Positions 26,883 through 58,349 are shown, counted from the stretch's first letter. The stretch is DNA of 64,000 nucleotides from Parcubacteria group bacterium (GCA_016203945.1 JACQLT010000002.1:181336-245335), one strand, 5' to 3'. Notes: generated from the letters alone by a model not told the origin. Program-made: numbers and translations.

Positions 26883-27346
26883 GCGCTGAACCAACAATTG
26901 AAATAGCAAAGCTGCTCGTCAAAGAGCTGTTCTCGCGCCTGGGGATCAAAGAAGCTCCGGCCGTGAGCATGCCAGACGGGCAGACCCTGCAGGTGACCCT
27001 GACAATAGAAGACCCCAAGACCCTTATTGGAGAACGCGGCCAGACGCTGTTTGAAATCCAGCATCTTCTGCGCGCTATGCTCAGAAAAAAACTTCAGCAA
27101 GACCCCCCCCGCGTATTCCTGGATATCAACGACTACCGCAAGAGCAAGGAAGAATATCTTCGGGACGCAGCCCGGCTGGCGGCCGACGAAGCGGTGCTGC
27201 TCAGTAAGCCCCGCGAGCTCGAGGCAATGTCGGCGGCTGACCGCAGGATCGTGCACATGGAATTAGCCCAGCGCTCAGACGTTGCCTCCGAGAGCATAGG
27301 AGAAGGAGAAGAGAGAAGGGTGGTGATAAAGCCGAGGGCATCCTAA
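26879..27346 (+). CDS. jag: RNA-binding protein Jag/KhpB (KH + R3H)
   Basis: KH-like TLIGERGQTLFEIQHLL and R3H RIVHMELAQRSDVASESIGEGEERRVVI; ATGA overlap with yidC. Confidence 0.7.
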   Translation: MSAEPTIEIAKLLVKELFSRLGIKEAPAVSMPDGQTLQVTLTIEDPKTLIGERGQTLFEIQHLLRAMLRKKLQQDPPRVFLDINDYRKSKEEYLRDAARLAADEAVLLSKPRELEAMSAADRRIVHMELAQRSDVASESIGEGEERRVVIKPRAS

Positions 27347-29136
27347 CCCCGGTCTTCTGCGGCGCGCTTCGCAGTTTCCCGCGCCAGGAGTTCTTTGGGA
27401 GACGTGGTGACAATCTCGTGTTCCGTTGGAGAGGCCACCACCTTAATGGCCACGTGTTTTTGTCCCGCAAAAAAGATTCCTTCCCCCAGCCCGGTCTCCA
27501 AGAGCAGCTGCTTTTCCGCTTCGGTAAGATTGAATGCTTTTTGTACAACATCAATGGTTGCAGGGCTTTGCTTGAGTAGAAGCTGCAAAGATGAGTTCGT
27601 GATAATCGGCCTGCCATAATCGGATCGCATAAAGTCACCAACATCTTGGGTGATGGTGGTCACGCCCAGGTAGTACTTCCTGGAGCGTTTCGCGATACCG
27701 TACAGAAAAGATGCTCCGTCTTCTGACTGCATAATCCACCAGGCCTCGTCCACCACGAGAATTCTTTTTTTAAGCACAGACCTCACTACGCTCCAGATGT
27801 AGCGCATGATGATGTACATTGCGAGGGGCCGCAAACCCTCTTCCATGTTGCGGATACCGAAAGAGACCAGGTTGGTGGTAAGAGAAATATTAGAATGCTG
27901 GTTGAAGAAGTTGGCGTAGGTTCCCTTGGTGAACTTTTGGAGTCTGCGCACCAGAGACTCCGCGCCCTCCATGGTAAGGAGCACTTCTTCTAAATCCTGC
28001 ATTAAGGGGATGTTCGCCTGCCAGTTCTTGGGGTCTGAAGTTACCGTAATGTCTTTTGCGGCATAGGTTTCCGTAACGGCTCTGTCCATAATAGAATCTT
28101 CTTCGGGAGTGAGCCCGCCCAGCATGAGGCGCATGAGGCCTACGAGGTTGATGACGTTGGATCGCAGGACGTCGTCTGGCCGCTCATCTTCTCTTGGGAG
28201 CGGCAAGTCAAAGGGATTGATGTGGTTTTCAGATCCCAGAGAAATATCAAAGAATGATCCTCCAGCGGCTTCGCAAAGCGGCTTGTATTCATTTTCAGGG
28301 TCTAACACGACGACGTCTACGCCCGTCATGAGCGACCTGAGAATCTCCAATTTTACTGCGTAGGATTTTCCAGAGCCCGACTTTGCGAATATGACCTCGT
28401 TGGCGTTTTCCAAAGAGAACCGGTCAAAAAGAATAAGAGAATTGTTGTGCCGGTTGATTCCATAGAGAATACCCTCGTTGGAGCTCAAGTCGAAAGACAG
28501 GAACGGAAAGAGCGAAGACAGGGGGCCGGTATTCATTGTGGTATGGGATTGGAGAAGGTCTTTCCCGTACGGGAGGCTGGAATTGAACCCCTCTTTCTGG
28601 CGATAGAGCGCCGGCTTCATATAGATGAGGCGCGACTCAAAAATGGAACGCAGTTCCGTCTTAATCCTCAACAACTCCTCTTGTGTTTCCCCGTATATGT
28701 TCAGGTATACGCCAACCTTGAACATCCTTTCCTGGGCCGTTTGCAGAGCATCCCGCAGGTTCTCAAGATCTGCGAATGCGGTTTCAAGAGAAGGATCTCG
28801 CACAAGGCCTCTTTCGGATTTCTCCATAAGCTCTGACTCAACCTCGGTAACTTTTCTGCGCAGCCGTTTGAGCACCAAGCCAGTGTCCACCGGATGGGCG
28901 AATAAGGCAACATCCATCGGAACCCCCATGTTAATGACCGGAGCTAACCAAGCTGAAGTGAGATACCGAGGGTAGGAGAAGATGAACATGGAAGTCGCCA
29001 GGCGTCCTGCCATGTCCAAATACTCGGAATCCACTTTCACCGTGGCCGGAGCTATGATATCTTTTGCGGTTAGGGTGTCCCTCTCAAAGAGCTTTTCGGA
29101 GACCGCCCCTGTTTTTTTTCCGAATAATGAAGCCAT
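27343..29136 (-). CDS. VirB4/TrbE/CagE-family T4SS ATPase, C-terminal NTPase portion (597 aa)
   Basis: Walker A FAKSGSGKSYAV, Walker B ILVVDEAWWIM, VirB4-like length/pattern; begins 5 nt after the stop of the VirB4 N-domain ORF. Confidence 0.6.
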   Translation of the reverse strand: MASLFGKKTGAVSEKLFERDTLTAKDIIAPATVKVDSEYLDMAGRLATSMFIFSYPRYLTSAWLAPVINMGVPMDVALFAHPVDTGLVLKRLRRKVTEVESELMEKSERGLVRDPSLETAFADLENLRDALQTAQERMFKVGVYLNIYGETQEELLRIKTELRSIFESRLIYMKPALYRQKEGFNSSLPYGKDLLQSHTTMNTGPLSSLFPFLSFDLSSNEGILYGINRHNNSLILFDRFSLENANEVIFAKSGSGKSYAVKLEILRSLMTGVDVVVLDPENEYKPLCEAAGGSFFDISLGSENHINPFDLPLPREDERPDDVLRSNVINLVGLMRLMLGGLTPEEDSIMDRAVTETYAAKDITVTSDPKNWQANIPLMQDLEEVLLTMEGAESLVRRLQKFTKGTYANFFNQHSNISLTTNLVSFGIRNMEEGLRPLAMYIIMRYIWSVVRSVLKKRILVVDEAWWIMQSEDGASFLYGIAKRSRKYYLGVTTITQDVGDFMRSDYGRPIITNSSLQLLLKQSPATIDVVQKAFNLTEAEKQLLLETGLGEGIFFAGQKHVAIKVVASPTEHEIVTTSPKELLARETAKRAAEDRG

Positions 29137-29141: not shown

Positions 29142-29774
29142 TTACCGGATGATTTCCGGAGGAATCTCAGGATAGTAGCCGACTTCTGCTTCTTTTGGGT
29201 GATGCCACCCCCAAAACAATTCTATAAGTTCTTCTGAGTTCAAAGGAGCCACTTTTAGGCCCATGCGTCTCAATCCGAGCGCCACGAATTCCATGCGCTG
29301 CCAGAGCTGCGTCTTCATGCGCTGCAAGTCGTCATCGGAAAGCCCCCCCACAATCCTCGGCATGCGCTTCCGGTCGTCAAGCGGCAGGGTTTCTACGAGA
29401 GAAAACGGCACGACTACAAAGAAATTCTTGGTCATAATGGCAGACCCCGCAATGAGGCGCTCCACGAACGCATGGTAGTCCTTGGTGAGCCCCTTCAGCA
29501 GTTCATTCTTCTGATTTACCTCCAGCTCCTTGAGCTGGTCTAAGTAGCCGGTAAGGTTAAGCCTGCGGGATTGGACGACGATCTGCATCGAAAAATCCAG
29601 CGAGTTCAAGAGGGACTGGAACTGGGCAATAGTCGCATCCTGTTCTTCGCCCGACTTCAGGGCGAAATTCTGTGAAGAAACAAGCATGACGCCGCGCACG
29701 GTGCGGTCTTTGAGCACCGCCATTCCCTCTCGGATCTCGTCTAGCTCAAGGAATTCTTGTGTCGTGGCAGCCAT
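29142..29774 (-). CDS. VirB4 N-terminal domain protein (separate ORF, 210 aa)
   Basis: EIREGMAVLKDRTVRGVMLVSSQNFALKSGEEQDATIAQFQSLLNSLDFSMQIVVQSRR aligns in pattern with the VirB4/TrbE N-terminus (LLKDGS..a..G.aFEL.E.E.......N.LL..a.D.aSay.H.RH); combined with downstream ORF about 807 aa equals full VirB4 size. Confidence 0.55.
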   Translation of the reverse strand: MAATTQEFLELDEIREGMAVLKDRTVRGVMLVSSQNFALKSGEEQDATIAQFQSLLNSLDFSMQIVVQSRRLNLTGYLDQLKELEVNQKNELLKGLTKDYHAFVERLIAGSAIMTKNFFVVVPFSLVETLPLDDRKRMPRIVGGLSDDDLQRMKTQLWQRMEFVALGLRRMGLKVAPLNSEELIELFWGWHHPKEAEVGYYPEIPPEIIR

Positions 29775-29777: not shown

Positions 29778-30179
29778 TTAAGATTCAATTTTTGTTGAGA
29801 GTTTGCTAATCTTACTTTCTTTAGAAAGCGTAATCTGGGTTGTGCGGGGTTCGGGCGCAGCTTCCGGGGCAGCAGCGCGAGCTGGCGCGCTGGCGAATAC
29901 GCGCTTCTTTTTCCAGTAGTAGATCTTGCCCCCCATCTGGAAACTCAAGAAATCTATGAATACAGCCGGAAGCGATTTCCCCCCAATCTGCACAAAGGCG
30001 GTGAGAAATCCAAATGCCGCAAGGCCGAGGCTTGCTACCGCAAAGACAAGCAGAGGCGCAAAGAAGTACAGAATAAAGGCGGCTCCGCCCGCGACCGCAA
30101 GAAAAGCGAATTGGCGGAAGGTGAGTGGCCCCACCACCAGCGCCTCTCGTTCAATAAATTGGGGAACTTGGAACTGCAT
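29778..30179 (-). CDS. VirB3/PrgI-like small membrane protein
   Basis: MQFQVPQFIEREALVVGPLTFRQFAFLAVAGGAAFILYFF: conserved G-L-(T/S)-x-RQF motif and 2 TM typical of PrgI/VirB3 family preceding VirB4; start trimmed to MQFQ. Confidence 0.5.
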   Translation of the reverse strand: MQFQVPQFIEREALVVGPLTFRQFAFLAVAGGAAFILYFFAPLLVFAVASLGLAAFGFLTAFVQIGGKSLPAVFIDFLSFQMGGKIYYWKKKRVFASAPARAAAPEAAPEPRTTQITLSKESKISKLSTKIES

Positions 30180-30192
30180 GATGTTTTTTACA

Positions 30193-30624
30193 TTATCTCG
30201 GAGCGCAGGGGATGCTGAAGATCCCGCCCCCAAGCCCGGTCCACTCCTGCACGCCAATGGCAACAAAGAACAGGTTAATGACGAGCCACGAGGCATAGAC
30301 AATGAGCAGCCCGAACATAACGCTTTTCAAAATGTCCCTGCCGCGCTGTATGTTTGCGGGACTTCCCTGCGAGAACAGAAAATACGCTCCCCCGACAACC
30401 ACCATGAGGACAGCCACGGCAGGCACGAAGGTGAATAAGATGAAGTCCAGAATGCGATCGACAAGGAGAAAGATGTGGCAAAATTGGCAGCCCTCTGTTT
30501 TTGCGTCGTATATGCCGTCTCCATCTATATCGTATCCGCAAGGCACCAGCCCCTGGGCAAGGGCAAAAGGAGCTGCGGAGAGCAGCAGGAGAAAGACGGC
30601 GACGAAAAGACATGCTCTTTTCAT
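30193..30624 (-). CDS. secreted two-helix hydrophobic protein, VirB2/TrbC-like pilin candidate (minimal paralog)
   Basis: Signal peptide MKRACLFVAVFLLLLSAAPFALAQG, then two hydrophobic helices separated by polar loop (VVGGAYFLFSQGSPANIQRGRDILKSVMFGLLIVYASWLVIN); shares GGxxY...G.P....R..I....GL....SWL...IN motif with ORFs 35916-37547 and 38895-40490. Confidence 0.45.
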   Translation of the reverse strand: MKRACLFVAVFLLLLSAAPFALAQGLVPCGYDIDGDGIYDAKTEGCQFCHIFLLVDRILDFILFTFVPAVAVLMVVVGGAYFLFSQGSPANIQRGRDILKSVMFGLLIVYASWLVINLFFVAIGVQEWTGLGGGIFSIPCAPR

Positions 30625-30627
30625 TTT

Positions 30628-31077
30628 TTATTCAAACGATTCCCGATACGTATCTTCTTTCTTTGGAGTGGCAGGAGATGGCGCTTCTTGCGCGAAAGCC
30701 GCAGCTGCGGGCGCCGCCTTCTTTACCTGGGGAGCAGCCGAGTTAGCTGCCTCTGTTATGTTATGAAGCTGGCGCAAGCTTTCTTTCACAGGAAAGAAGA
30801 CGAACCTGGTGATATCTCTTGCGATATTCGCAGCCGCGTCTTTTTTAAGCCCCACTTCTTTTTCCAGGGTTTTTTGGAAGTCCTCTGGAAGTAAAATGCC
30901 CATGAGCACTTGTCCCGTAAGCTCCGCAACCCTATTCCCCCGCTCGTCAGTCACGCCCTGCGACAGGCGTGCGTTATAAATCGCATCCGCGGTTTCCACG
31001 GAAAAGATCGCCTCTTGCAGCTCATCGGGAAGCTTTTCAAATATCTGATTAAACTGTTCTTGAGTATACTGTGGCAT
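30628..31077 (-). CDS. hypothetical soluble protein (149 aa, Ala/Pro-rich C-terminus)
   Basis: No TM; in T4SS-like operon between pilin candidate and VirB6-like gene. Confidence 0.3.
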   Translation of the reverse strand: MPQYTQEQFNQIFEKLPDELQEAIFSVETADAIYNARLSQGVTDERGNRVAELTGQVLMGILLPEDFQKTLEKEVGLKKDAAANIARDITRFVFFPVKESLRQLHNITEAANSAAPQVKKAAPAAAAFAQEAPSPATPKKEDTYRESFE

Positions 31078-31226
31078 AGATATAGTTTATCACCGCGAAA
31101 GAATACCACAAGCCTGCCTGCCGCAGGCAGGCGCCACTTGACACAGCCACTTTTTTGTTGTAGTATTGCTCCAGAAAAACTGAACCTTAAGAACAAAAAG
31201 AAAGCAGGCCAGAAAGGAGGTCGCGC

Positions 31227-31445
31227 ATGCCTAAGCTTTCAATGGAGCAGGTCGTTTGGATCGAGCTCATCGCAATCTGGGCCGTGATCGGCCTCCTGGT
31301 GGGCATCATGCTTTGGGAGCGGCTAAGGGAGTTTATTCGGAAGATGTTCCGCTCCCCAATATCTTCAGCAACGCTCCGGGGCAAGAGGAAAACGTTGCGG
31401 GGCCGCCCCGCATACGAAGGGAAATCGAAATCGGTACCCCAATAA
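31227..31445 (+). CDS. small single-TM membrane protein (72 aa)
   Basis: Strong SD aaaggaggt 6 nt upstream of ATG; TM WIELIAIWAVIGLLVGIMLW; precedes SPFH gene. Confidence 0.45.
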   Translation: MPKLSMEQVVWIELIAIWAVIGLLVGIMLWERLREFIRKMFRSPISSATLRGKRKTLRGRPAYEGKSKSVPQ

Positions 31446-31463
31446 AAGAAAGGAAGGTGTAGT

Positions 31464-32537
31464 ATGCAGTGGGCGGTGCTTGCAGGCGCTACGCCAGTTG
31501 TTCTGGGAATCGCATGTTTCCTGCTCGTGTGGTTCGTGCTCGCTCCCCGGAATCTGTTCTTCACGTTCGTTTCTGAGGGCACAGCAAAGATCGTCGTGAA
31601 GGCAGACCAATTTTCCAGGTGCCTCATCCAGTGGAAGGGGTATACCCTGGATGAAAACGGGAATGTGGTGTCGGGCAAAGACGGCTTCCACCCGTTTGGA
31701 GGCCTGCGGTTCGTAGGCATCTGGCCGATTTGGGACATCTTCGTTTACCTTCTGCGCTGGAATGACGTTCACAGGGCAGAAGAGCGAAACGGGAGGATAG
31801 AAGAAGTCAGGTTCCACGCCAAGTGGCTGGACTATATCCTTCTTCGCCCGGACGTCTACTGGACAAAGCTCACGGGAGCAGAGACCACACCAGGGACAGC
31901 GGAAACGCCAGAGGCCCAAGAGCGCATCCCACTGGACGTGGAGTTTAACATCACCATGCAGGTGATAAATCCGTACAAGGTAATGTTCGTAGCTCCCCCA
32001 AACTGGGTGGAAAATGTCCTCGTGCGGCTTGACGCGGTCCTTCGAGGATTTGTCGCCACCCACACCCTCGACGAGCTACTTGCTATGAGGGGAGGCGGCG
32101 GCGAACAAGCTGAAATAGTGACCTGGAACGAACTCGGTGCACATCCGTTCATCCAAGAAACCCTCGGGGAATGGGGCATTTCCATTCCTGAAAACGGGAT
32201 TCAGATGAAGAACATCGGGATCCCGGCCGACATCCAGCAGGCCGCTCAAGCAAGGCGCACGGAGCAGTTAAGGGCCGAAGGCGAGCGGCAGAGGGTGCAG
32301 ATCGGCGCCTCAGCAGAGGCGCAGAGAATCCACACGACCTATGGCGCCGTAGAACAACACGCCTCAGGCATGCTTATTCGGACTCTTGAGGCTGTCGAGA
32401 AGAGCCCATTGCCGGCAGCCTTGGCTGTCCAGGTCATCCCAGGTCTTTCAGATGTCCTTCGGGGCGTGCTCGAAAGGCCTGCAGCCGCAGTTGCTGCCGC
32501 TCCGGCAACAGATCAGGATCAGCCTGCTGCTCAGTAG
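31464..32537 (+). CDS. SPFH/band-7 (stomatin/HflKC-like) domain membrane protein
   Basis: N-terminal TM, SPFH-like core (DVEFNITMQVINPYKVMFVAPPNWVENVLVRLDAVLRGFVATHTLDELLAMRG) and coiled-coil AQARRTEQLRAEGERQRVQIGASAEAQRI; SD aaggaaggtg upstream. Confidence 0.55.
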   Translation: MQWAVLAGATPVVLGIACFLLVWFVLAPRNLFFTFVSEGTAKIVVKADQFSRCLIQWKGYTLDENGNVVSGKDGFHPFGGLRFVGIWPIWDIFVYLLRWNDVHRAEERNGRIEEVRFHAKWLDYILLRPDVYWTKLTGAETTPGTAETPEAQERIPLDVEFNITMQVINPYKVMFVAPPNWVENVLVRLDAVLRGFVATHTLDELLAMRGGGGEQAEIVTWNELGAHPFIQETLGEWGISIPENGIQMKNIGIPADIQQAAQARRTEQLRAEGERQRVQIGASAEAQRIHTTYGAVEQHASGMLIRTLEAVEKSPLPAALAVQVIPGLSDVLRGVLERPAAAVAAAPATDQDQPAAQ

Positions 32538-32586
32538 CAGCGGCAAAGCACAAAGGGGGTTTGCGAAAGCAGCCCCCTTTTTATTA

Positions 32587-34998
32587 TTACGCCAGAGAGC
32601 CAGGCCTTCCCCGAGGAAGTTTTTCTTGTCCGCCCTCTTTAGAAGATCCTGTTGCTCCTGGTCTTCCCCGAGGAGTCCGTTCCGGGCCGCCTTCTCCCGG
32701 AGGTGGCGGAGTTGTTGAAGGGGGCGTTGCAGAAGCTCCGCTGGCTCGGGAACGAGCGAGCTTCTCTTGCGTGCGCGTTTGGTCTTCTTCTAGTTCTCGA
32801 ATTTTTTGCAAGCTTTCCGGGGAAAGGTCTACGGCTCCTCCTGGCCGACGCCCCCTTTCTTGTACAAGTTCTTTTTGTATGTCGTCGAGACGGCGCTCTA
32901 ATCCCCGAATGTCTGCGGAACCAGGAACCCGATATCGTTCAATAATTTTTTCAGCGTCGTCTTGTGTGAGCCCTTTTCCTGTTTCAGGGTCTATATATGT
33001 AAAACCAAGATTGTGGGCGCCGGTACTCGAAACCCACTTCAACACATCTGGTGCGTTTTTCCCTAGCCAATCTTTATCAAGACTGCATATGTGATTAGTG
33101 ATTGCTGTTCGTTCTGCTTGTTCTCGCCTGCGAACCATTGGGCCGATAAATTCCGCTCCGCGCTCTATGAGCATCGAGTTAATAAATGCCGCGCCCGCTG
33201 GAGTGCTGGGATCATAGTTGCTCGGCGCATTCTCGTCGCCTTTTAAGTCTTCGGGCGTCATGCGGGCGGGAATCTTTGCTTTCATCCTCTCAAAATATTC
33301 TGCGTCAGAGCCCTTTCTTGAGAGAGCCCCCTCCGTGAACTTTACGCGCCCGGCATCGTCTTTTGCAAACTTGCCTTCAGCATCTCTTTCTAGGTCGTCG
33401 CTTCCGACATTGAAGCCCCATTTCGCTGGGTTAGTCATGATTTGTCCATAGAATGCCTTGAAAAGCGGACGCTCGCCATGGGGACCTATCCTGTCTCTCC
33501 CCAGTTTTATCAATTCTCCGATCTTTGCTTCTTTTCCTACCAACACCCCGTTTTTTTCAGGATCAAAAGCATCTTCAATATCATCTGCGTCTCCGCGGTT
33601 CCTTACTCCGGTCAGCAATCCCAAAATACGATTTTTATTTGGGACGGGCTTTAAGAGCTCGGCATTAACAGTAGCGAACACGTCTCGGGAGTCTCCCATC
33701 TTAGCGGTTTCTTTTACCGCCCTATCAAACGCAGCATAATCCCTAAAGTTAACCTGCTTGGAAAGTTCTCGCGCCCCGGCCTCTGTGACCCCCCAGCCTT
33801 TTCGCAAAGCCATTCCCGCAATAGTTGCCGGAATTCCGACTGCCCTGCCGGCCCCCCGTTTTTCAGCTCCCCATTGCTGCAATCCGCTTGCGAGCGATGT
33901 CATTTTTGTTGCAACTCCCGTAGCTTTGTTCCCGTACCTTCTCCAAAAAGCAGTACCCGCGGTTGCCCCGCCCCACTTGAGACCTTTCATGGCAAACGCC
34001 TTTGTGGCGGTGGCACCCATGGCGCCGCTTGTCTGCAAGGCGACAAAAAATCCCACCAAGAGCATGGCGAGCGCAATGCTGTAGGGTACGGTATCGTTGA
34101 GTATGCCGGCGACAAAGCCGTAAACCCCACCGCCCGAGGGCACTGACGCAGCAATCTCCCCCCGCGCCGCGAGGCTAATGATATGATCTCCCAGCCACAA
34201 GAAGAATGCGGCGAATATTCCAATGATAGACCATTGGAAGAATTGGTTCCACCACCAATTGAACAAGCCCCGCGTTCGCGGAAGGATAAAAGCAGCGAAC
34301 GCGATGGGGGAAAGAATAACCAAAATCCAAATAGCAATCCTCCTCACTATAAAGAGCGCGGCAAAAAGCATGAAAATAATGGCGGCGAAAACCTGAAAAG
34401 CCATGACGGCGAGCAATTGAAATATAAGAGAGATGTCGAAGATATTGCTATTGCCCGAAACAATATTGGTAAGATTTGTTAGAAGGTTCGTAACCAATCC
34501 GATGCCCGCCAATCCTTCCAGGAAAAAATTCATAAAGATGTTGGCGGTATCAACAATGAATCCGGTAATGACCGGGGTGAAGTTGATAAGAAGGGCTACT
34601 CCAATAAGCCGAGGCAGGGTTTTCTTTGCCTCGTATTGCCCAAGGCGCAGGGCGGTTGCCAGCCCAATAATGATTAAAAAGAACACGATAAGCATGTTCG
34701 CAAAATCGCGAACAACAGTCCACCCGGTCTCAACAATGGGACCCGTGGTATACGGAACCCGAATAAAAGAAGGATCAGTCGCAAGGCCAAGAATGATTCC
34801 TGCTATGGTGGCAGCGGCGGTTGTAAGGAAAAGCCCCGCAAGTAAAAATTGACCGATAACCAAAACCGCAATCGCATTTGCAATGCCGCCTAAAAATCCA
34901 CCAAATTGCGCCTGCGCAACGTTTGGAGAAAGGGCGATTCCCATCGAGGCAAAAAGAACAATCGCCAGCACTCCGCGTTTCCAGGCAAAAAATCTCAT
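32587..34998 (-). CDS. VirB6/TcpH-like polytopic membrane protein with ~400-aa C-terminal soluble extension
   Basis: About 10 predicted TM helices in N-terminal 400 aa (VirB6/TrbL-like), then hydrophilic domain ending in Pro-rich TPPSTTPPPPGEGG...PRGRPG; start placed at MRFFAWKRGVLAIV (signal-like). Confidence 0.5.
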   Translation of the reverse strand: MRFFAWKRGVLAIVLFASMGIALSPNVAQAQFGGFLGGIANAIAVLVIGQFLLAGLFLTTAAATIAGIILGLATDPSFIRVPYTTGPIVETGWTVVRDFANMLIVFFLIIIGLATALRLGQYEAKKTLPRLIGVALLINFTPVITGFIVDTANIFMNFFLEGLAGIGLVTNLLTNLTNIVSGNSNIFDISLIFQLLAVMAFQVFAAIIFMLFAALFIVRRIAIWILVILSPIAFAAFILPRTRGLFNWWWNQFFQWSIIGIFAAFFLWLGDHIISLAARGEIAASVPSGGGVYGFVAGILNDTVPYSIALAMLLVGFFVALQTSGAMGATATKAFAMKGLKWGGATAGTAFWRRYGNKATGVATKMTSLASGLQQWGAEKRGAGRAVGIPATIAGMALRKGWGVTEAGARELSKQVNFRDYAAFDRAVKETAKMGDSRDVFATVNAELLKPVPNKNRILGLLTGVRNRGDADDIEDAFDPEKNGVLVGKEAKIGELIKLGRDRIGPHGERPLFKAFYGQIMTNPAKWGFNVGSDDLERDAEGKFAKDDAGRVKFTEGALSRKGSDAEYFERMKAKIPARMTPEDLKGDENAPSNYDPSTPAGAAFINSMLIERGAEFIGPMVRRREQAERTAITNHICSLDKDWLGKNAPDVLKWVSSTGAHNLGFTYIDPETGKGLTQDDAEKIIERYRVPGSADIRGLERRLDDIQKELVQERGRRPGGAVDLSPESLQKIRELEEDQTRTQEKLARSRASGASATPPSTTPPPPGEGGPERTPRGRPGATGSSKEGGQEKLPRGRPGSLA

Positions 34999-35070
34999 TA
35001 CATTATTGTACCACCGCCAAAAGCCTGCGCAACAAGACGCCCCGCTCAATCAGGCGCAGAGGGGGTCGGG

Positions 35071-35099
35071 TTGACAAGTCCAGGGGAAAATTAGATACT
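35071..35099 (+). promoter_or_regulatory. putative promoter of DUF4352 gene
   Basis: TTGACA (35071-76), 17-nt spacer, GATACT; followed by SD AGAAGGAGGA (35155-64) 6 nt before ATG 35171. Confidence 0.4.
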
Positions 35100-35170
35100 A
35101 TATCCAGACATCCGCCACAGTGGTGGATTTGACATCTCAATAGCACACAAGTTCCAGAAGGAGGAACACG

Positions 35171-35848
35171 ATGGACAGAAGGCATACGGTGGGAAAGGGG
35201 GTCAGCCAACAGCCGACGCTGACCATCCCTACGCCATCCAAGAGATTGATCATCGGGATCGGGCTCGCAATCATCCTGATCGCGGCGATGGCGCTAATTG
35301 CGGTGACCATCGCGCTCACCACATCGTCGCCCGCAACCGACACAGCAGCCGTGGCCAACGTTCAGGAGCCGGCCGTTGCCAACACCGACCAGCAGGTCTC
35401 GCCAAATGGCGTTCAGGCACAGACGAGCGAGCCGACCGGCGACTTCACCCGTCCGGCAGACGCCGTCCGCATCGGCGAGTTCCTGATCACGGTGAACTCG
35501 GTGAGTACGCCGTCGGGCATCAACCCGCCGGAAGCCCACCTGAAGTACGTGGTCATCGAGCTCTCAGTGCAGAACGTCGGCACAAGCTCGAGTACGATTC
35601 GTGACATCGACGACTTCACGCTGTTTGATAGCGATGGGGTCAGGGCTAGCGCGCTGGTTGGAGGCGATGCGGAATCTGACGCCCTAGGAGAGCTTGGCAA
35701 GCGACTCCGTGGAGAATATCCGCGGGTTGAGCCTGGGCAGACCCTTGGCAGAGTCATGGTATTCAAGATCCTGAAGGATACCAAGCCCGCGCGTCTCGAG
35801 TTCTCGAGTCTCGACACCGGAGCCAGCGGCACTATTCCGCTCAAGTAG
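35171..35848 (+). CDS. DUF4352-like domain protein, membrane-anchored
   Basis: TM IIGIGLAIILIAAMALIAVTIAL, then RIGEFLITVNSVSTPSG...KYVVIELSVQNVGTSSSTI..DDFTLFDSDGVRAS matching DUF4352 beta-sandwich pattern; gene is about 60-63% GC versus ~50% surroundings. Confidence 0.5.
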   Translation: MDRRHTVGKGVSQQPTLTIPTPSKRLIIGIGLAIILIAAMALIAVTIALTTSSPATDTAAVANVQEPAVANTDQQVSPNGVQAQTSEPTGDFTRPADAVRIGEFLITVNSVSTPSGINPPEAHLKYVVIELSVQNVGTSSSTIRDIDDFTLFDSDGVRASALVGGDAESDALGELGKRLRGEYPRVEPGQTLGRVMVFKILKDTKPARLEFSSLDTGASGTIPLK

Positions 35849-35870
35849 TCTGCCCAGGGCGGATACATAA

Positions 35871-35905
35871 GGGCGTTCTCACATGAACGCCCTCCTTTTT
35901 ATTTC
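35871..35905 (+). terminator. rho-independent terminator after DUF4352 gene
   Basis: Perfect 8-bp inverted repeat GGGCGTTC-tcacat-GAACGCCC followed by TCCTTTTTATTT. Confidence 0.7.
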
Positions 35906-35915
35906 AGTTTTTTGG

Positions 35916-37547
35916 TTAGCGCGCTTTGATTGGAATTACCAAGAGGTATCTTGCCTCGTTGTCTCCGATATGATTATTTTTTAGGCGAATATCGTCCCCT
36001 TCAAACACCTCTGCTCTTCCGTCTTCCCTAAAGAGCACTGCGACATAGTCGCCATTAACCCTAATAGAAGAAGCGCGAGTCTTGCTTAGTACCCTATCGC
36101 AGCTCACCGTACTTTGATTGTCTCCGGATCCGATTGTTGTACCAAAATTTACGGAACCATTCACCCAGAGCGGTTTGCCCGATCTAAGAGCGCCAGTCGC
36201 GTCGGTCTGCGCGTTAATGGGGCCGCAGTGTTTTTGATCAGCCTCATTTCTGTCGCTCTTTGGCTGTTCGTTGAAGTCATAGTTTCCAAAGAGGGTGACG
36301 CCGTCTCCTGAAGGAGAATTGACAGGTATCGTATTGGTTATCGTTTGGTTAGAAACGATTTCATATGGCAAGTATTGATTAAATACCTTTACGGAAGATA
36401 CTTCGTTTGCCACAAATCCTTGGCAGTAGGGCTCTTGCGTCTGACTGCAGGACTCGGCGATTGGGATGCATTCGGCGCGTTGAGCAGGAATTTGGTTGAG
36501 ATCTTTCCCGCCCAAGAACACAGCGCCGTCTCCTTCAAACCTCTCTTTTTCAAACAGTACCACCCCCACCTTGTTTGTTATGGCGCTTATGAATTTGTCT
36601 GACTCGGGAGTGCCTTCTGGAAAGGGGCCAAAAAGAGGCAATCTGGTAATTGAAGGAATGATCTTGAGTGATTTTGCTCGGTTGTCAAAATCTCCGAGAG
36701 TCGCCGTGTTTCCCACATATGCCTGCACCTCGTCACCTGAACATTCTGCCCCGGCAAAAAGGTATACTCCGGGAGTTTTCCAGGTAAGCTGAACAGAGCC
36801 AATCTTTTGTTCCCCGCCAAGCGAAACACATGCGGCTCCGGCATTGTCAGTTTCTAAAGAAGCGGGGATCTCACCGCCCTGCTGCCGGACGCGGTCTGCA
36901 GAGCTGAATACTTTAATTCCCCGGCGATCCTTTTCTTTGTAAATAACAATGTCGAGTTCCGTGCTTGAGTTAAGAAACCTAATTGATCCAGCTTTGGGAA
37001 AATTTATGCTCACGCCAGGAATTTCGTTGGTGAGATCAGAGAGAGTGTTTTTTACCCGCAGAAAATCCACTCCTTCTCGCAGTCCTTTTGTGCTTCCGCA
37101 ATTGTCTCCCGCAAACAAGATAACTCCCTGTTTTGAAAAATTAGCATCTTTATCTATCTTAAGAATAACAAGCTGTGGGTTAATGGTAGTAAGCAAAAGC
37201 CATGAGCCAAGAAGTAGTACCAGCCCAAGAAGAGAGGCTTTGATCTGCTCCCTTGCGTCTGAAAGCGCCCCCGGATTTCCGGCAGAAGAGACATATCTGA
37301 ATCCTCCATAGACAAAAGAAACAAACGCGGCGAGTCCGGCAACCGCAATGCCAAGGTTGAACATGTACTTGATAAAGTTGGGAAGACTTCGCACCTCGTT
37401 GGGGGGCTGGGCTCCTCCCGGCACCTGCGGGTATTCGAGTTCCAGCTGCTGGGCAAACGCGACAGGCAAAACCAAAGAGAACACAAACGCAATCAACACG
37501 GCTGCTACGAGAATGGTAAATACAAGGCGTACTCGTTTTTGCTTCAT
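35916..37547 (-). CDS. pilin-like (VirB2-type N-terminal module) protein fused to large extracellular repeat domain (543 aa)
   Basis: Signal peptide, then LELEYPQVPG...FIKYMF...VYGGFRYVSSAGNPGALSDAREQIKASLLGLVLLLGSWLLLTTINPQL (paralogous to 30193-30624 and 38895-40490); C-terminal 400 aa with 5 internal G(V/I)xLF...G repeats. Confidence 0.45.
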   Translation of the reverse strand: MKQKRVRLVFTILVAAVLIAFVFSLVLPVAFAQQLELEYPQVPGGAQPPNEVRSLPNFIKYMFNLGIAVAGLAAFVSFVYGGFRYVSSAGNPGALSDAREQIKASLLGLVLLLGSWLLLTTINPQLVILKIDKDANFSKQGVILFAGDNCGSTKGLREGVDFLRVKNTLSDLTNEIPGVSINFPKAGSIRFLNSSTELDIVIYKEKDRRGIKVFSSADRVRQQGGEIPASLETDNAGAACVSLGGEQKIGSVQLTWKTPGVYLFAGAECSGDEVQAYVGNTATLGDFDNRAKSLKIIPSITRLPLFGPFPEGTPESDKFISAITNKVGVVLFEKERFEGDGAVFLGGKDLNQIPAQRAECIPIAESCSQTQEPYCQGFVANEVSSVKVFNQYLPYEIVSNQTITNTIPVNSPSGDGVTLFGNYDFNEQPKSDRNEADQKHCGPINAQTDATGALRSGKPLWVNGSVNFGTTIGSGDNQSTVSCDRVLSKTRASSIRVNGDYVAVLFREDGRAEVFEGDDIRLKNNHIGDNEARYLLVIPIKAR

Positions 37548-37557
37548 GATGATGCGA

Positions 37558-38388
37558 TTACCTTATAGTACAGCAGAAGAAGTTATTGTTAAAGCACTGC
37601 TCCTGTTTCTCGGACAAAACCTTCTCGAACCGTGCTTCCTGGCAGGAAATGAGAATATCCACGTCTTGTTCGGATTCTCCTGTGTCGTAGAAGTTTGCCG
37701 GAGTCACGCAGGCCTCTAGGCCCTGCCTTGCCTCTTTGAGGTTGAGAAGAATGTGTTCCCGCCAGGGTTGTTTCTGGCATTTTTGTTGGCAGCCAAAGGG
37801 GCCGTAATCTACAGCACATTGCTGGCTGCCGCAGTACTCTGCCGTCACAAAAGGAGAGGGTATTTTTTCTCCAAAAGGCGCTGCAATCATTCCGTTTGCT
37901 TGCACGGTGCTCTCGTGCGCAGCTATAATCTTTGCAACCTGGTCTTGAATTTCGGATGTTGGGCAGGGGCTTCCTGCGCACGCTGACGCTCGGCATGCGT
38001 ATATGGGAGTCGACGTGCCCTGACACTTCCCCTTCTCATCAGTCTTCCCGTCGCACTTACTCCCGACAACTTCAGGAGTACAAGAAGAGCGACACGCGTT
38101 TACATTGCATCTGTCTGGAAGCTCAAGAAGCTTGTCTACGGCGGTTTTCTGTCGAAGATAGTTAGTTCTCATAGAATGAAGCGCATTTCCAACCTGTCGC
38201 ACAAGATCTCCTGATTGCACCACGACTTCCCCAACGGGGATCTCTTTTTCTTGGCAGACGAGTTCATCCGAGAATTCTTGCGCAAGCGCTTCAGCAAGAG
38301 GCGAGGCCCGGAAAACGCCGTTGCCAAACAGAAAATATGCAAGTATTGCAAAGGAGATAGCGAAGAAAATAAGAAAAGATTGTTTCAT
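37558..38388 (-). CDS. secreted cysteine-rich protein (276 aa, about 25 Cys)
   Basis: N-terminal signal/TM MKQSFLIFFAISFAILAYFLF; numerous Cys in CxxxC/CxC patterns; ends FFCCTIR. Confidence 0.4.
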   Translation of the reverse strand: MKQSFLIFFAISFAILAYFLFGNGVFRASPLAEALAQEFSDELVCQEKEIPVGEVVVQSGDLVRQVGNALHSMRTNYLRQKTAVDKLLELPDRCNVNACRSSCTPEVVGSKCDGKTDEKGKCQGTSTPIYACRASACAGSPCPTSEIQDQVAKIIAAHESTVQANGMIAAPFGEKIPSPFVTAEYCGSQQCAVDYGPFGCQQKCQKQPWREHILLNLKEARQGLEACVTPANFYDTGESEQDVDILISCQEARFEKVLSEKQEQCFNNNFFCCTIR

Positions 38389-38400
38389 TGCGTTTTTATT

Positions 38401-38892
38401 TTATTGTATCACGCAGCCGGGCGGAAGCGGATCAAACTCTCCGCCAACCTGTTTGAAATAATTGAAGGCTTCGCCGCCTACGTAAAATACAACAGGCAGA
38501 CCACATATATCTTTAGAAGAAAACCCTTGCTCTTGAAACCACTGCATGACTTCTTGTTTTATCTGTTCTGTTTCTATGCCCCGAATTTCCACATAAAAAA
38601 TATCAGGACTTGGCAGATAAGAGATTCTGTAAGAAGTTGTTTCGTAAAGAGTCGCCGGCTCCCCGCGTATTGTTTGGAGCATGGCAGACCGCAGCGACCT
38701 TCCTTCGTTGCTTAGTTTTCCTCGTAGTTCTGCAATACGCTCTACGGTTCTGGGTGTGTTCCTGAAGACGGGGCGAACAACAGGGCTTTGTTTTGAGTAT
38801 ATTGAGTAAAAAAAGATCAAAAGGAACAATAGCCCGAGCGCCAAAGCGGTTTTCAAAAGAAGAATTTTTCTGAAACCTGAAAAATTAAACAT
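38401..38892 (-). CDS. N-terminally membrane-anchored hypothetical protein (163 aa)
   Basis: TM ILLLKTALALGLLFLLIFFYSIY then small soluble domain; 2-nt gap to next ORF. Confidence 0.35.
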   Translation of the reverse strand: MFNFSGFRKILLLKTALALGLLFLLIFFYSIYSKQSPVVRPVFRNTPRTVERIAELRGKLSNEGRSLRSAMLQTIRGEPATLYETTSYRISYLPSPDIFYVEIRGIETEQIKQEVMQWFQEQGFSSKDICGLPVVFYVGGEAFNYFKQVGGEFDPLPPGCVIQ

Positions 38893-38894
38893 AG

Positions 38895-40490
38895 TTATTC
38901 AATCCATCCCGCGCAAACCGGAACATGTTCCGTCTGTCCCCCCCCGAGCTCACAGGGATTACACGTCCAACGATTCCCGTATTGAGGATCAAGCACTTGC
39001 CAGTATTCCCATCCAGAGCAGACGTTTCCGTGGAGATCTTGTAGTCCTCTCACTCCTTTGAATTGCAATACCGGGTTTAATGTTTGTTCTGACCAAAGGG
39101 GTTCTGCTACCTGGTATCCATTTGGGTAACTGCCGGGCGGCGTATCTGGATCAGCGTCCACTCCTCCGCCAAGATCGAACTGATAAAATCCCGTTGCTGG
39201 CGGATGGGGAGAGCAGAAGTTTTGAGCTCCGGGGTTCCAGCCGCTTTCTGGCCCTATGACGTCGAGAAAAAAGATATTTGCCTCTTCTTCTGACAAACGG
39301 CTGCGTAGCTGTCCGTGGACCTCATCTTGAATTGTTTCCAAGGGAGCCCCTTCGGGATTAAACGAAGTGCCGCTTGCATAGTTTGGGGGAATAACGCTGC
39401 AAATACCATCTCCTCCTCCGCCGAACCCTTCTCCGGGAGGCCCAATAATGCGCCGATACGCGTCTTCTATAATGGTTTTATTCTGCTCTTCATCCACGTA
39501 AAACGTAAAAGGATCATTCCCCCGCGCCTCGACTGTTTTCCCAACAGCGATAAAGGGATTTATTTGGACGTTTTTGTACCCAGAATTTAACAATACCTGC
39601 TTGATTTCAAGAAAATTGTCATAGTTGACAGGGTCTGGAATTTCTTGGAGAAATTCGTTCGCGTAGAGAAGCCGCGAGCCGTCCCGGATAAATTCGGTAA
39701 ACGAACGATCTGGTTTTGACATAAAATCCGAAAACTCTTCCATTGCGTCGGCAAGTTCCAGCTTCTTCTTCTCGATTGTCCCCTGATCACATATCTGTCC
39801 TGTGCACTGAGTTGCCGGGGAACAAGATTGAGAACCGGAACATCCTCCACTGGGTTGCGCGCGAGAACAACTGCATTTTTTGGTTTCTTCTTGCAGGGCA
39901 AGCGCCGCATCCCGCACCTTCTTTGAAAGTTGCACAGTTTTATTCCCTTTTTCTTGTAAGGCATTGATGCGGCGCGGTTCAAGAGCGTCTTCAAGCAAGG
40001 TCCCCAAAGGCACTTCAAGCGCCGAAGCAGTCAGCCCTTCTTTTTCACACTGTTCCTTGCATTGATCCGTGACGGGGTTAAAGCAGTCGCACGTGTCTCT
40101 GGTTGGGATTTGAGCTATGGGTTTGTCAATCCTGAAAACAGCAAGCTGAGGGTTAATGGTGGCGAGAAGAATATAGGCTCCTAACAGAATAAGAGATCCC
40201 AGCACTCCTTCAGTAATCTGGGCCCGGGCTTCACTTCTTGCGCCAGGACTTCCTCCGGAGGCCATGTACTTGAATCCTCCGTATACGGCAGACCCCACGG
40301 CAAGAAATCCCGCGGAAATCACAGAAAAAATATATATATATCTGACAAATTCCGGCAGAGCCGGCTTTGTAGAAAGCTGGGATCCGGGAAGGGCAGGATA
40401 GTTCAGTTCAAGCCCTTGCGCAAACACTGCGGCTCCGCTAACGGTTGCTACTGCAAGCAGAAGGGTGATAAAAATAAGAAAAGTGCGCAT
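38895..40490 (-). CDS. pilin-like (VirB2-type N-terminal module) protein fused to large Cys-rich extracellular domain (531 aa)
   Basis: Start at MRTFLIFITLLLAVATVSGAAVFAQG (TAATG overlap with upstream ORF stop); GLELNYPALPG...FVRYIYIF...VYGGFKYMASGGSPGARSEARAQITEGVLGSLILLGAYILLATINPQL; downstream CDCFNPVTDQCKEQCEKEG and KKCSCSRAQPSGGCSGSQSCSPATQCTGQICDQG clusters. Confidence 0.45.
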   Translation of the reverse strand: MRTFLIFITLLLAVATVSGAAVFAQGLELNYPALPGSQLSTKPALPEFVRYIYIFSVISAGFLAVGSAVYGGFKYMASGGSPGARSEARAQITEGVLGSLILLGAYILLATINPQLAVFRIDKPIAQIPTRDTCDCFNPVTDQCKEQCEKEGLTASALEVPLGTLLEDALEPRRINALQEKGNKTVQLSKKVRDAALALQEETKKCSCSRAQPSGGCSGSQSCSPATQCTGQICDQGTIEKKKLELADAMEEFSDFMSKPDRSFTEFIRDGSRLLYANEFLQEIPDPVNYDNFLEIKQVLLNSGYKNVQINPFIAVGKTVEARGNDPFTFYVDEEQNKTIIEDAYRRIIGPPGEGFGGGGDGICSVIPPNYASGTSFNPEGAPLETIQDEVHGQLRSRLSEEEANIFFLDVIGPESGWNPGAQNFCSPHPPATGFYQFDLGGGVDADPDTPPGSYPNGYQVAEPLWSEQTLNPVLQFKGVRGLQDLHGNVCSGWEYWQVLDPQYGNRWTCNPCELGGGQTEHVPVCAGWIE

Positions 40491-40921
40491 TATGTTTGAA
40501 GCTCGGAGTATACCATAAAGGTCCAGAGGGGGAGCGCTCCTACGTAGGGGATGACTTCTCCAATAAAGGCAACAGGTCGAAGCCACTTGGACCGGCCTGC
40601 CATTTTTGCGGTTCTTGCCTCTGCTTGCGCGCCTCTCGTCTCCATTTGGGGACGACTTCCCCTGAACAGCATCCAAAGCCCTATGGTGCAGTAGGCTATA
40701 AAATCGGTAATGAAAAAATCGTCTAGCCCAAAAAGAACCAAGCCAATCCCAATGATGTCTATTATTCCTGCAATGGACATCATTATAAACCCCTCGGGAC
40801 TCAAGAGAGAGGCGCCCCCGCCTTCATCTGCCGTTTGCTCTTGGCTGCCAGTTTGGTCTTGGGGAGCTTCTTCTGTCTGCGCAGGCGCTCCTTCTTGCTC
40901 CTGTACTTCTTCGTCTGCCAT
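40490..40921 (-). CDS. small membrane protein with acidic N-terminus (143 aa)
   Basis: MADEEVQEQEGAPAQTEEAPQDQTGSQEQTADEGG then 3-4 TM; translationally coupled (TAATG) to pilin-fusion gene; first gene of minus-strand cluster. Confidence 0.4.
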   Translation of the reverse strand: MADEEVQEQEGAPAQTEEAPQDQTGSQEQTADEGGGASLLSPEGFIMMSIAGIIDIIGIGLVLFGLDDFFITDFIAYCTIGLWMLFRGSRPQMETRGAQAEARTAKMAGRSKWLRPVAFIGEVIPYVGALPLWTFMVYSELQT

Positions 40922-41838: not shown

Positions 41839-42876
41839 TTGTTGTACGCTATGAAGCCTAATTTACGGAAGTTCGTAGCTTTTTTGAAGAAATATATTAG
41901 ATTCCTTGCCCCCGGGGGAGCCATCCTCCTTCTTTTGTTTATAGGGATTGTTCTCGGGTCTCGACAGGGAGCCCTGCAGAGCAGCTTTCTGACGGCACCG
42001 GCAAGTGCAATTTCTTCTTTTTCTGCCGCCCTGGATTCGACTCGACGGGCAACCATCTTTCCGGAAAGTCCGGAACTTTTGGTATTTGAGGGCAGCACGT
42101 TGGCCGCGGCAACCCCTCCTGTTACCGTAACACCAAAGGTATTGGGTGCGATAGTGGGCACGCTTGACGGAGAGGGAGGAGCCGAAATTGCCCACTATGT
42201 CGTAGAAGAGGGAGACACCGTGGCCTCTTTAGCAGAGAAGTTTGAAATCTCCACGAACACGATCCTTTGGGCAAACGACATTCCCAAGGGCGCGGAGCTC
42301 AAGCTAAATCAAGAGCTCACCCTGCTCCCGGTTTCTGGAGTGCTTCATGCCATACGCCCAAACGAGACCCTGGGATCCATCGCATCCCTCTACCAGGTAA
42401 AGGCGCAAAAGATTGCAGCTGCCAACAATCTGGACTCGGCAGATGACATTTTCGCAGGAGACCTGCTCGTTATTCCCGGGGGCTCGCCCCTTCCTGTCAG
42501 CAGCTATATCCCTTTGGCAAACTCCTACTTCATCTATCCCATTCCAGTTCCTCACTACATCACCCAGGGCCTGCATCCTTTCAACGCCATAGACTTTAGC
42601 AATGGATCATGCGGAGAGTCGGTATTTGCGGCTGCCGGCGGCATTGTTCAAAAGATCGGCTACAGCTCCATTGGCGGAAACTATGTCCGTATCCTCCATC
42701 CCAACGGAGTCGTAACCTACTACGGCCACCTTTCCAGCATCGGGGTAAGCCCCGGGCTGCAGATTTCTCAGGGAGGGATCGTCGGATACACCGGAAACAC
42801 CGGATATACCATAGGGCCCACGGGATGCCACGTGCACTTTGAAGTACGAGGTGCAGAGAACCCGTTCAGGAGATAA
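41839..42876 (+). CDS. LysM-domain peptidoglycan metalloendopeptidase (peptidase M23 family)
   Basis: N-terminal TM; two LysM-like segments (YVVEEGDTVASLAEKFEISTNTILWANDI; HAIRPNETLGSIASLYQVKAQKIAAANNL); C-terminal M23 motifs GNYVRILHPNG...YGHLSS...GYTGNTGYTIGPTGCHVHFEV. Confidence 0.75.
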   Translation: MLYAMKPNLRKFVAFLKKYIRFLAPGGAILLLLFIGIVLGSRQGALQSSFLTAPASAISSFSAALDSTRRATIFPESPELLVFEGSTLAAATPPVTVTPKVLGAIVGTLDGEGGAEIAHYVVEEGDTVASLAEKFEISTNTILWANDIPKGAELKLNQELTLLPVSGVLHAIRPNETLGSIASLYQVKAQKIAAANNLDSADDIFAGDLLVIPGGSPLPVSSYIPLANSYFIYPIPVPHYITQGLHPFNAIDFSNGSCGESVFAAAGGIVQKIGYSSIGGNYVRILHPNGVVTYYGHLSSIGVSPGLQISQGGIVGYTGNTGYTIGPTGCHVHFEVRGAENPFRR

Positions 42877-57047: not shown

Positions 57048-57056
57048 TGAAACTTG

Positions 57057-57127
57057 AGCGGGTGACGGGGATCGAACCCGTGTGGCGAGTTTGGAAAACT
57101 CGTGCACTACCACTGTGCTACACCCGC
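57057..57127 (-). tRNA. tRNA-Gly (anticodon TCC)
   Basis: Acceptor GCGGGTG/CACCCGC, anticodon stem CGAGT/ACTCG loop TTTCCAA, T arm ACGGG-TTCGATC-CCCGT, discriminator U. Confidence 0.75.
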
Positions 57128-57141
57128 ATATGCCAAGCTTG

Positions 57142-57212
57142 TCGGGCCGCTGGGAATCGAACCCAGTCTACCTGCTCCCAAAGCAGGCGTACTACCGGTA
57201 TACTACGGCCCG
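57142..57212 (-). tRNA. tRNA-Pro (anticodon TGG)
   Basis: Acceptor CGGGCCG/CGGCCCG, anticodon stem CCTGC/GCAGG loop TTTGGGA, T arm CTGGG-TTCGATT-CCCAG. Confidence 0.75.
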
Positions 57213-57280
57213 CCTTTTTATACTAATGTTCGCCTCCTTTCTGTACCATTTTTTTTACGCTGGGTCAATCTGTGATAGAA

Positions 57281-57309
57281 TTGACTAGCCTCATATTTTC
57301 TGGTATGTT
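57281..57309 (+). promoter_or_regulatory. putative promoter for tRNA-Arg(TCT)/tRNA-His transcript
   Basis: TTGACT (57281-86), 17-nt spacer, TATGTT (57304-09). Confidence 0.35.
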
Positions 57310-57442
57310 TTGGACGCATCTGTGCATTGTACCGCTCTTGCGCAGATATACTTCTCGCCTTCGGCTCAATCAAAAAACTGAAGGCGCAAGAGCGGCCCCG
57401 CCAGCTTTTGCTGGCCTTCAATGCTCACTTGCTCGCATTGAA

Positions 57443-57514: not shown

Positions 57515-57529
57515 CAATATGAATCATAT

Positions 57530-57601: not shown

Positions 57602-57611
57602 CAGCAAAACG

Positions 57612-58029: not shown

Positions 58030-58036
58030 GAAAGAT

Positions 58037-58330: not shown

Positions 58331-58349
58331 GTAATATACTAATAAACAT

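Follow-up and report, generated by a model that had tools for sequence, protein, structure and literature searches.

The closest described relatives of the genes reported here are those of the type IV secretion systems (T4SS) of Patescibacteria, for which pilin arrays have been published (Wang et al., 2023, PMC10633639; Quinonero-Coronel et al., 2025, PMC12102498). According to these papers, the system lies at a site near dnaA and ksgA, a relaxase is often absent, and arrays of 2 to 11 divergent VirB2-like pilins are present; such arrays are found near virB4 and dnaA (PMC12102498). In a Saccharibacterium, the pilins predicted for the T4SS proved to be essential (PMC10633639). In this tractable organism, peptidase and lysozyme genes downstream of virB4 are essential as well. 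The Patescibacterial T4SS was essential in the one species tested, its role being described as completely unknown (PMC11665869), and it has been noted as the sole monoderm T4SS with pilin genes (PMC12857230). Here, we analyzed a chromosomal stretch of 64,000 nt from the metagenome-assembled genome of an ultra-small Parcubacteria group bacterium (hereafter the window, to which all coordinates refer), and in it three open reading frames (ORFs), A, B and C, which encode one small and two large proteins with a common N-terminal pilin module. The T4SS, the pilin family and the occurrence of pilin paralogs are already known; the fused modular forms and the conserved pair that they make appear to be undescribed.

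With the published systems, the window shares the family PF18895, a chromosomal cluster near dnaA, rnpA, yidC and ksgA, the components VirB4, PrgI/VirB3 and VirB6, and several divergent pilin paralogs per locus. By contrast, the published arrays were treated as small pilins, with VirB1-like hydrolases as a separate component, whereas two of the three paralogs here are 530-540 aa long, and in Parcubacteria at large a fusion of the module to hydrolase or crystallin-type domains is the typical form, with a C-type and a B-type protein as a conserved pair. We found no description of this fused modular architecture, or of the pair, in the searchable literature. The nearest concept appears to be that of the modular type IV pilins PilB and PilC of Streptococcus sanguinis (PMC8179133, PMC9934059), in which a polymerisation module is combined with a functional domain so that the filament shows an adhesin or a lectin. 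However, type IV pili are an unrelated filament system, and their pilins have one long N-terminal helix and a class III signal peptide, neither of which is present in B or C.

Three proteins with a common N-terminal pilin module

The three genes and the modules of the two long proteins are as follows (pLDDT, predicted local distance difference test).

30193..30624, minus strand: A, short ("A-type") T4SS pilin, 143 aa (PF18895, 26.8 bits; B/C-module profile, E = 1.5e-7)
35916..37547, minus strand: B, putative modular pilin ("B-type"), 543 aa (25 full-length orthologs; AlphaFold mean pLDDT 77.5)
37161..37451, minus strand: pilin module of B, aa 33-129 (PF18895, 24.3 bits; model helices 57-87 and 92-122)
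38895..40490, minus strand: C, putative modular pilin ("C-type"), 531 aa (AlphaFold mean pLDDT 67.7)
40128..40421, minus strand: pilin module of C, aa 24-121 (44% identity to the B module, E = 2e-28; short-pilin profile, E = 3e-26)

A preliminary description of this DNA had given the three ORFs with these positions and lengths, and we confirmed them, all on the minus strand. The NCBI annotation agrees on the lengths of B (HY458_01880, 543 aa) and C (HY458_01895, 531 aa); the longest reading frame of C opens at 40676, and the 531-aa form, which opens with a signal peptide, is the NCBI form.

The hydrophobicity profile of each protein shows a signal-type N-terminal stretch and two more hydrophobic helices, and the AlphaFold monomer models of B and C show a helical hairpin, formed in C by residues 45-77 and 82-112 (at pLDDT 80-90). 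In B, the module consists of a mature N-segment with LELEYPxxPG, helix 1, the loop SAGNPxxxSDAREQI and helix 2 with a terminal TINPQL. A is made of a signal peptide, a Cys-containing N-segment, the two-helix hairpin and a short Cys-containing tail. Each of the three N-termini is a classical Sec signal peptide, with AFA, VFA or ALA at its end and Q as the next residue, and neither a prepilin-peptidase motif nor a class III signal peptide (G/F-x-x-x-E) is present in them. With this signal peptide and two transmembrane helices, the appended domains of B and C are extracellular: since the hairpin has both ends outside, everything C-terminal to helix 2 is outside the cell. These outer regions are Cys-rich.

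The shared architecture claimed in the preliminary description was recovered with every motif that it quoted: the helix-1 ends (VYGGFRY, VYGGFKY and VVGGAYF among A, B and C), SAGNPGALSDAREQI and SGGSPGARSEARAQI, and LELEYPQVPG and LELNYPALPG in the long proteins. TINPQL, however, is limited to B and C among the three ORFs. B and C were 44% identical over 123 aa in BLASTP (E = 2e-28), and this identity includes polar motifs beyond the hydrophobic stretches, namely LELxYPxxPG, LPxF(I/V)(K/R)Y, VYGGF(R/K)Y, S(A/G)GxPGAxS(D/E)AR and TINPQL. Pairwise BLAST of A was marginal (E = 0.22 against B and E = 8e-4 against C). When the B/C-module profile was compared with the six-frame translation of the window, exactly three ORFs matched, B (2e-57), C (2e-44) and A (1.5e-7). 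Judged from sequence, the three N-terminal modules are paralogous, A being a distant third member related at the profile level. Beyond the module, BLASTP found no relationship between the C-terminal ~400 aa of B and those of C.

Against Pfam PF18895 (T4SS_pilin), A scored 26.8 bits for a gathering cut-off of 26.6, and B (24.3 bits) and C (16.3 bits) fell under this cut-off. The membership of B and C is secure because a profile made from short stand-alone array pilins (from L052, L020 and other loci), which themselves score 49-54 bits against PF18895, matches both B (1e-35) and C (3e-26). PF18895 was also matched at E<=1e-3 by 79 of 86 related long proteins. At the level of sequence profiles, A, B and C can thus be placed securely in the Patescibacterial T4SS pilin family. 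In NCBIfam, the B module gave a weak, sub-threshold match to a "pilin-like conjugal transfer protein" of a Mycoplasma integrative and conjugative element.

VirB2/TrbC (PF04956) resembles the present proteins in its signal peptide, in its two-helix hairpin with a short polar loop, and in having its gene beside VirB3 and VirB4 homologues. It differs in size, VirB2 precursors being ~100-120 aa long and devoid of an appended domain, a norm that A (143 aa) fits and B (543 aa) and C (531 aa) do not; moreover, the host is here a monoderm. VirB2/TrbC pilins polymerise into an extracellular helical pilus, usually with bound phospholipid; a pilus, lipid binding or cyclisation would be hypothetical for the present proteins. 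The view that the short protein A is a bare pilin held, and A has conserved orthologs: four Cys are invariant in a conserved subfamily (orthologs L032, L041 and L054). A also contains a DIDGDG stretch (DxDxDG-like) and one Cys close to each end of the mature protein. It is conceivable that a disulfide between the two ends mimics the head-to-tail cyclisation of VirB2/TrbC.

The appended regions and their spread across Patescibacteria

Beyond the module, three regions were distinguished.

35919..37136, minus strand: extracellular region of B, aa 138-543, with several predicted beta/gamma-crystallin-type domains (Foldseek against PDB)
39435..40097, minus strand: middle domain of C, aa 132-352, which defines the C-type family (pLDDT >90)
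38898..39428, minus strand: lineage-specific tail of C, aa 355-531, with one Ig-like repeat segment (pLDDT <50)

The 25 full-length orthologs of B have 34-60% identity. The model of B is beta-rich from residue 140 on, and the top 34 matches of this model to PDB in Foldseek were nearly all gamma- or beta-crystallins, Protein S and nitrollin (E from 1.6e-4, probability up to 1.0). P0028, a relative that aligns over the full length of B, matched Pfam Crystall (5.8e-7) and Inhibitor_I36 (1e-4). Because of the Foldseek matches and of P0028, the outer region of B is predicted to be a string of domains with the beta/gamma-crystallin-type fold, which is also that of the microbial proteins Protein S, nitrollin and clostrillin. 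In contrast to P0028, B itself reached no Pfam crystallin model (no match to PF00030 even at E<=10). By eye, FDNRAKSLKI in B is similar to the Ca2+-binding motif N/D-N/D-x-x-S/T-S, without being canonical. In the literature searched, we found no report of this fold being joined to a T4SS pilin module. The preliminary description had seen the appended regions as candidate adhesins, and for B this fits, crystallin-type repeats being plausible binding domains; in C, by contrast, the family mostly carries cell-wall hydrolases.

In the model of C, the middle domain combines a helical bundle, which bears a Cys-rich knob (CxC...CxGxxC), with an alpha/beta subdomain. With C as the query, word-indexed protein searches gave just 2-3 relatives, and the family was defined by an exhaustive phmmer search, which found ~30 homologous clusters among 1.84 billion representatives. 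In a Pfam scan of this family (n = 33), we observed PF18895 in 20 members, Peptidase_M23 in 19, SLT_3 (lysozyme-like) in 3 and Peptidase_C39_2 in 2. P0039, a C-type relative, has M23 together with a lysozyme-like domain. For the C-type family, the predicted order is a pilin module, then a helical stalk, and then usually a hydrolase acting on the cell wall. Whereas the canonical virB2 gene adjoins that of the lytic transglycosylase VirB1, the C-type family unites both functions in one protein. The membrane-anchored multidomain wall hydrolases PrgK, TraG (pIP501) and TcpG of Gram-positive T4SS are also comparable, in that the C-type family has an N-terminal membrane segment and M23 or lysozyme-like domains, with genes near VirB4 in two related contigs, L001 and L003; the differences are that the C-type anchor is a conserved pilin-family hairpin joined to a specific helical middle domain, and that C of the window is without a recognisable hydrolase domain.

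Within its family, C of this genome seems to be an exception in which the enzyme is replaced by a tail with an Ig-like repeat signature. The last 176 residues matched nothing in Pfam (E<=10) or PDB, and a segment of them resembles one Ig-like repeat unit of surface proteins (repeat of P0064, E = 8e-6 in BLASTP and E = 1.3e-5 in phmmer). We rejected the tail as a lysozyme or transglycosylase (ESGWNP...GFYQF), since lysozyme-like profiles of the relatives scored it below shuffled controls, and an Ig-like repeat fits better. The long proteins had also been proposed to sit at the tip of a pilus; nothing supports this location, and no VirB5/TraC-like helical fold was found for the middle domain of C in fold searches. 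Two other proteins, P0046 (818 aa) and P0054 (769 aa), contain in one chain a pilin module, a crystallin-like B-type segment (seen by eye), the C-type middle domain and hydrolase domains, which indicates that the B and C architectures can merge.

The case had been treated as specific to the window. A census in one genome per GTDB species, made with two peptide patterns from the module, instead gave 50 genome loci, nearly all from Patescibacteria, including Nealsonbacteria, Wildermuthbacteria, Jorgensenbacteria, Kaiserbacteria, Staskawiczbacteria and Paceibacterota. Complete module-bearing ORFs numbered 96, and 86 of them were longer than 300 aa (median 488, maximum 1477), a share that is biased upward because the patterns were drawn from the long forms, with a narrower alignment. 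The module was N-terminal in 94 of the 96. In the C-terminal parts of the 86 long proteins, Pfam identified M23, C39-type and C70 papain-like, SLT_3, NlpC/P60, Crystall, beta-helix and LTD domains, and most parts were without assignment. Classification of 104 module-bearing ORFs with our own profiles gave 35 C-type and 30 B-type proteins, usually as an adjacent pair. Both types were present in at least 18 loci, and 12 further loci had a C-type gene together with another long pilin-module protein whose C-terminal region matched neither profile. From these data, a C-type gene followed by a B-type gene is a conserved pair across Patescibacteria. The module also occurs alone: L052 has a classical array of nine short pilins, and L020 encodes a bare 134-aa module of the B/C type that ends a few residues after INPQL. 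Where the module meets the appended region, 75 of the 86 long proteins have the junction motif [IVL][NDT]P[QEKNSR][LFI], which reads exactly INPQL in 60 and is absent in short array pilins.

The surrounding T4SS-like gene cluster

The other annotated members of the cluster are listed below.

27343..29136, minus strand: VirB4-type ATPase (PF19044 P-loop_TraG, E = 1e-23; 66-67% identity to VirB4 of L001 and L003)
29142..29774, minus strand: free-standing VirB4 N-terminal (TraC-like) domain protein, 210 aa (NCBIfam VirB4_plasma over positions 121-232, E = 2.6e-7; orthologs PF26593)
29778..30302, minus strand: PrgI/VirB3-like protein (PF12666, E = 8e-7; orthologs align from residue 42)
32587..35049, minus strand: VirB6/TrbL-like polytopic membrane protein, 820 aa (45% identity over 411 aa to the PF19590 TrbL_3 protein of L001)
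37558..38388, minus strand: D, Cys-rich exported protein, 276 aa, between C and B (BLASTP to the C-terminal part of P0029, E = 5e-8)
38401..38892, minus strand: single-pass membrane protein, 163 aa, between C and D (positional counterpart in L001 and L003)
40490..40921, minus strand: small membrane protein, 143 aa, directly upstream of the C-type gene (orthologs in L001, E = 1e-16, and L003, E = 2e-25)

In the window, dnaN, dnaA, rnpA, yidC and jag lie at ~22.8-27.3 kb, with the replication origin close. The minus-strand cluster occupies 27.3-40.9 kb and contains, in coordinate order, VirB4, the TraC-like protein, PrgI/VirB3, A, a conserved 149-aa protein, the VirB6/TrbL-like protein, B, D, the 163-aa single-pass protein, C and the conserved 143-aa membrane protein; plus-strand genes for Band_7/SPFH and DUF4352 proteins are interspersed. 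In this lineage, VirB4 appears to be split over two genes. The longest PrgI ORF and A overlap by 110 nt. The alignment of the PrgI orthologs opens only at residue 42, which places the true start probably near 30179 and leaves no overlap with A. The alignment of the VirB6/TrbL-like protein to its L001 ortholog covers the first ~390 residues only, and the protein has a hydrophilic C-terminal extension of ~430 aa, rich in Pro, Gly and Arg at its end, that resembles an "extended VirB6".

A comparable order was observed in the two longer contigs, L001 and L003, from other Parcubacteria, which contain genes for VirB6, PrgI, the TraC-like protein, VirB4, a ~145-aa protein, the C-type protein, a ~130-aa protein, D and the B-type protein, beside jag, yidC, rnpA and dnaA. 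The C-type gene is there just downstream of VirB4, with one small membrane-protein gene (~145-165 aa) in between, which is where the orthologs of the 143-aa protein sit. In the window, C belongs to the same cluster and lies 9.8 kb from VirB4. Within 10 kb of the B/C pair of L001 and L003, no short pilin was found.

In L001 and L003, too, an ortholog of D is encoded after the C-type gene and before the B-type gene. P0029, from another genome, is a 751-aa pilin-module fusion whose C-terminal part is homologous to D, and because the D domain is there fused to a pilin module, D can be linked functionally to the fusions (a Rosetta-stone link). A direct comparison of D with the middle domain of C was not significant. 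The 163-aa protein has one N-terminal transmembrane helix and an ectodomain of ~125 aa, occupies the position of PrgL/VirB8 in Gram-positive T4SS operons and gave no match in family library scans; according to published reports, VirB8 is mostly not detected in Patescibacteria.

At the edge of the cluster, a LysM and Peptidase_M23 protein (41839-42876, plus strand) adjoins rsmA, in the same position as in L001. In a genome such as this one, whose C-type protein is without an enzyme domain, this protein could be a source of wall-hydrolase activity. Further along the window, seven tRNA genes (57056-58198) are followed by a block of lower G+C (58200-64000; 0.42-0.45 compared to 0.50-0.54 elsewhere). 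This block, with genes for small redox and ArsR-like proteins, may be an acquired island.

Proposed modular T4SS pilins and competing explanations

The most likely reading of these genes, which we hold with moderate confidence, is that they encode modular T4SS pilins displaying binding or wall-cutting domains. A, B and C would be exported by Sec, lose their signal peptides, probably after AFA, VFA or ALA, and be inserted in the membrane as an N-out/C-out two-helix hairpin. A would be the plain structural pilin, and B and C modular pilins. The pilin module would then serve as a handle by which the T4SS (VirB4, VirB3/PrgI and VirB6) recognises B and C, docks them or co-assembles them with A, so that the appended domains are placed on the exterior of a T4SS surface structure. 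There, the putative rod of crystallin-type domains of B would likely be a binding or structural arm, and the C family, with its peptidoglycan hydrolases on a helical stalk, would correspond in function to VirB1 or PrgK. The sequence data show the family, the topology, the T4SS context, the fold of the outer region of B, the architecture of the C family and the conservation of the gene pair; that the proteins co-assemble into a filament, that B binds and what the hydrolases cut is what we infer beyond this.

Several points weigh against this reading. First of all, a pilus of this family has never been observed, and homology to canonical VirB2/TrbC is not demonstrable: Pfam TrbC (PF04956) gave A 15.5 bits for a cut-off of 27.9 and did not match B or C, and hhalign of the module against six genuine VirB2/TrbC proteins from plasmids returned P = 0.028 and a probability of 1.7%, although the helices and the loop of the two fall in register in that alignment. 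The term VirB2-like, used in the preliminary description, is therefore one of architecture and gene context only. When B, C and the module profile were used to search PDB, nothing meaningful was returned by sequence or by profile, and the module profile found no pilin there. The fold search with the middle domain of C gave no specific or informative match. No wall-hydrolase domain (SLT/lysozyme-like, M23 or CHAP/NlpC) is recognisable in C itself, and the census share of long proteins carries the upward bias stated above. A domain of 400-1400 aa on each subunit would be sterically hard to accommodate on a T4SS-type helical fibre, for which reason B and C would at best be minor subunits. Finally, the wall hydrolases of Gram-positive T4SS, such as PrgK and TraG of pIP501, are simply membrane-anchored.

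This last point leads to the main rival, which we regard as a serious possibility, though a rather unlikely one. According to it, the hairpin is only a two-helix membrane anchor, possibly docked next to the T4SS, that undergoes neither extraction nor polymerisation; the C-type proteins would be tethered wall hydrolases, equivalent to PrgK or VirB1, and B a tethered surface adhesin, equivalent to PrgB. In pCF10, prgK follows prgJ, and the C-type gene of L001 and L003, placed after VirB4 and a small membrane-protein gene, is in a roughly similar position. The same two contigs speak for an anchor by having no short pilin close to the pair, as do the dominance of M23, lysozyme-like and papain-like domains in the C family, the poor packing of large ectodomains on a thin fibre and the homology to VirB2 that could not be demonstrated. 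However, where a protein has a plain anchor, this is usually less conserved than all the rest, whereas here conservation is highest in the hairpin, the loop and the mature N-segment: in the B family, mean pairwise identity was 64% for the module, 43% for the C-terminal outer region and 38% for the signal peptide. Furthermore, the modules are homogenised within genomes. The B-type and C-type modules were more alike within than between genomes in 15 of 17 loci (among L001-L041; Wilcoxon p = 8e-4), and some within-genome pairs reached 65-79% identity, which suggests gene conversion or co-evolution, as would be expected of modules that have to match one another or a shared partner. Moreover, this module is also found as stand-alone small proteins in tandem arrays. 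Because of the high conservation in B, the likeness within genomes and these free small versions, the hairpin appears to be more than an anchor.

It is improbable, in our opinion, that the long proteins are pro-pilins or polyproteins in which a cleavage after TINPQL yields an ordinary pilin hairpin and a freed enzyme or binding domain. The P-type pilins TrbC and VirB2 shed C-terminal residues on maturation, and such a loss would have a parallel here in the junction motif, common in the long proteins and absent from the short array pilins, and in the natural L020 protein, which stops shortly past INPQL. Nevertheless, we identified no candidate maturation protease in the cluster, and INPQL could equally be a helix-capping or membrane-exit motif. 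Pilin processing is summarised in PMC6362355. The remaining explanation, a generic signal-peptide or hydrophobic effect or a fusion made by assembly or annotation, has in its favour only the weak pairwise similarity of A to B and C and is refuted by the strength of the B/C match with its polar motifs kept outside the hydrophobic stretches, by the specificity of the profile for three ORFs in the whole window and by the recurrence of the fusion in 86 complete ORFs from ~45 independent genomes.

Modular T4SS pilins also have a stronger version, which we consider unlikely on present evidence: an "armed" T4SS filament or stalk, in which pilin-family subunits bear hydrolases (C-type) and crystallin-type binding rods (B-type). 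Such an apparatus would both attach to and cut through the host cell wall. If this were true, modular or enzymatic subunits would be described in a T4SS pilus for the first time, and there would be a mechanistic handle on why the epibiotic way of life of Patescibacteria requires the T4SS and its pilins.

Overall, the pilin family of the Patescibacterial T4SS includes, besides small subunits, a conserved pair of large modular proteins, one of a hydrolase class and one of a crystallin-type class, and at least part of the hydrolase function in this lineage appears to be fused to the pilin module. The principle of the modular pilin, so far one of type IV pili, is extended to a family of T4SS pilins. 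These proteins are concrete candidates for the parts that touch and breach the host envelope, and they may help to explain host contact.

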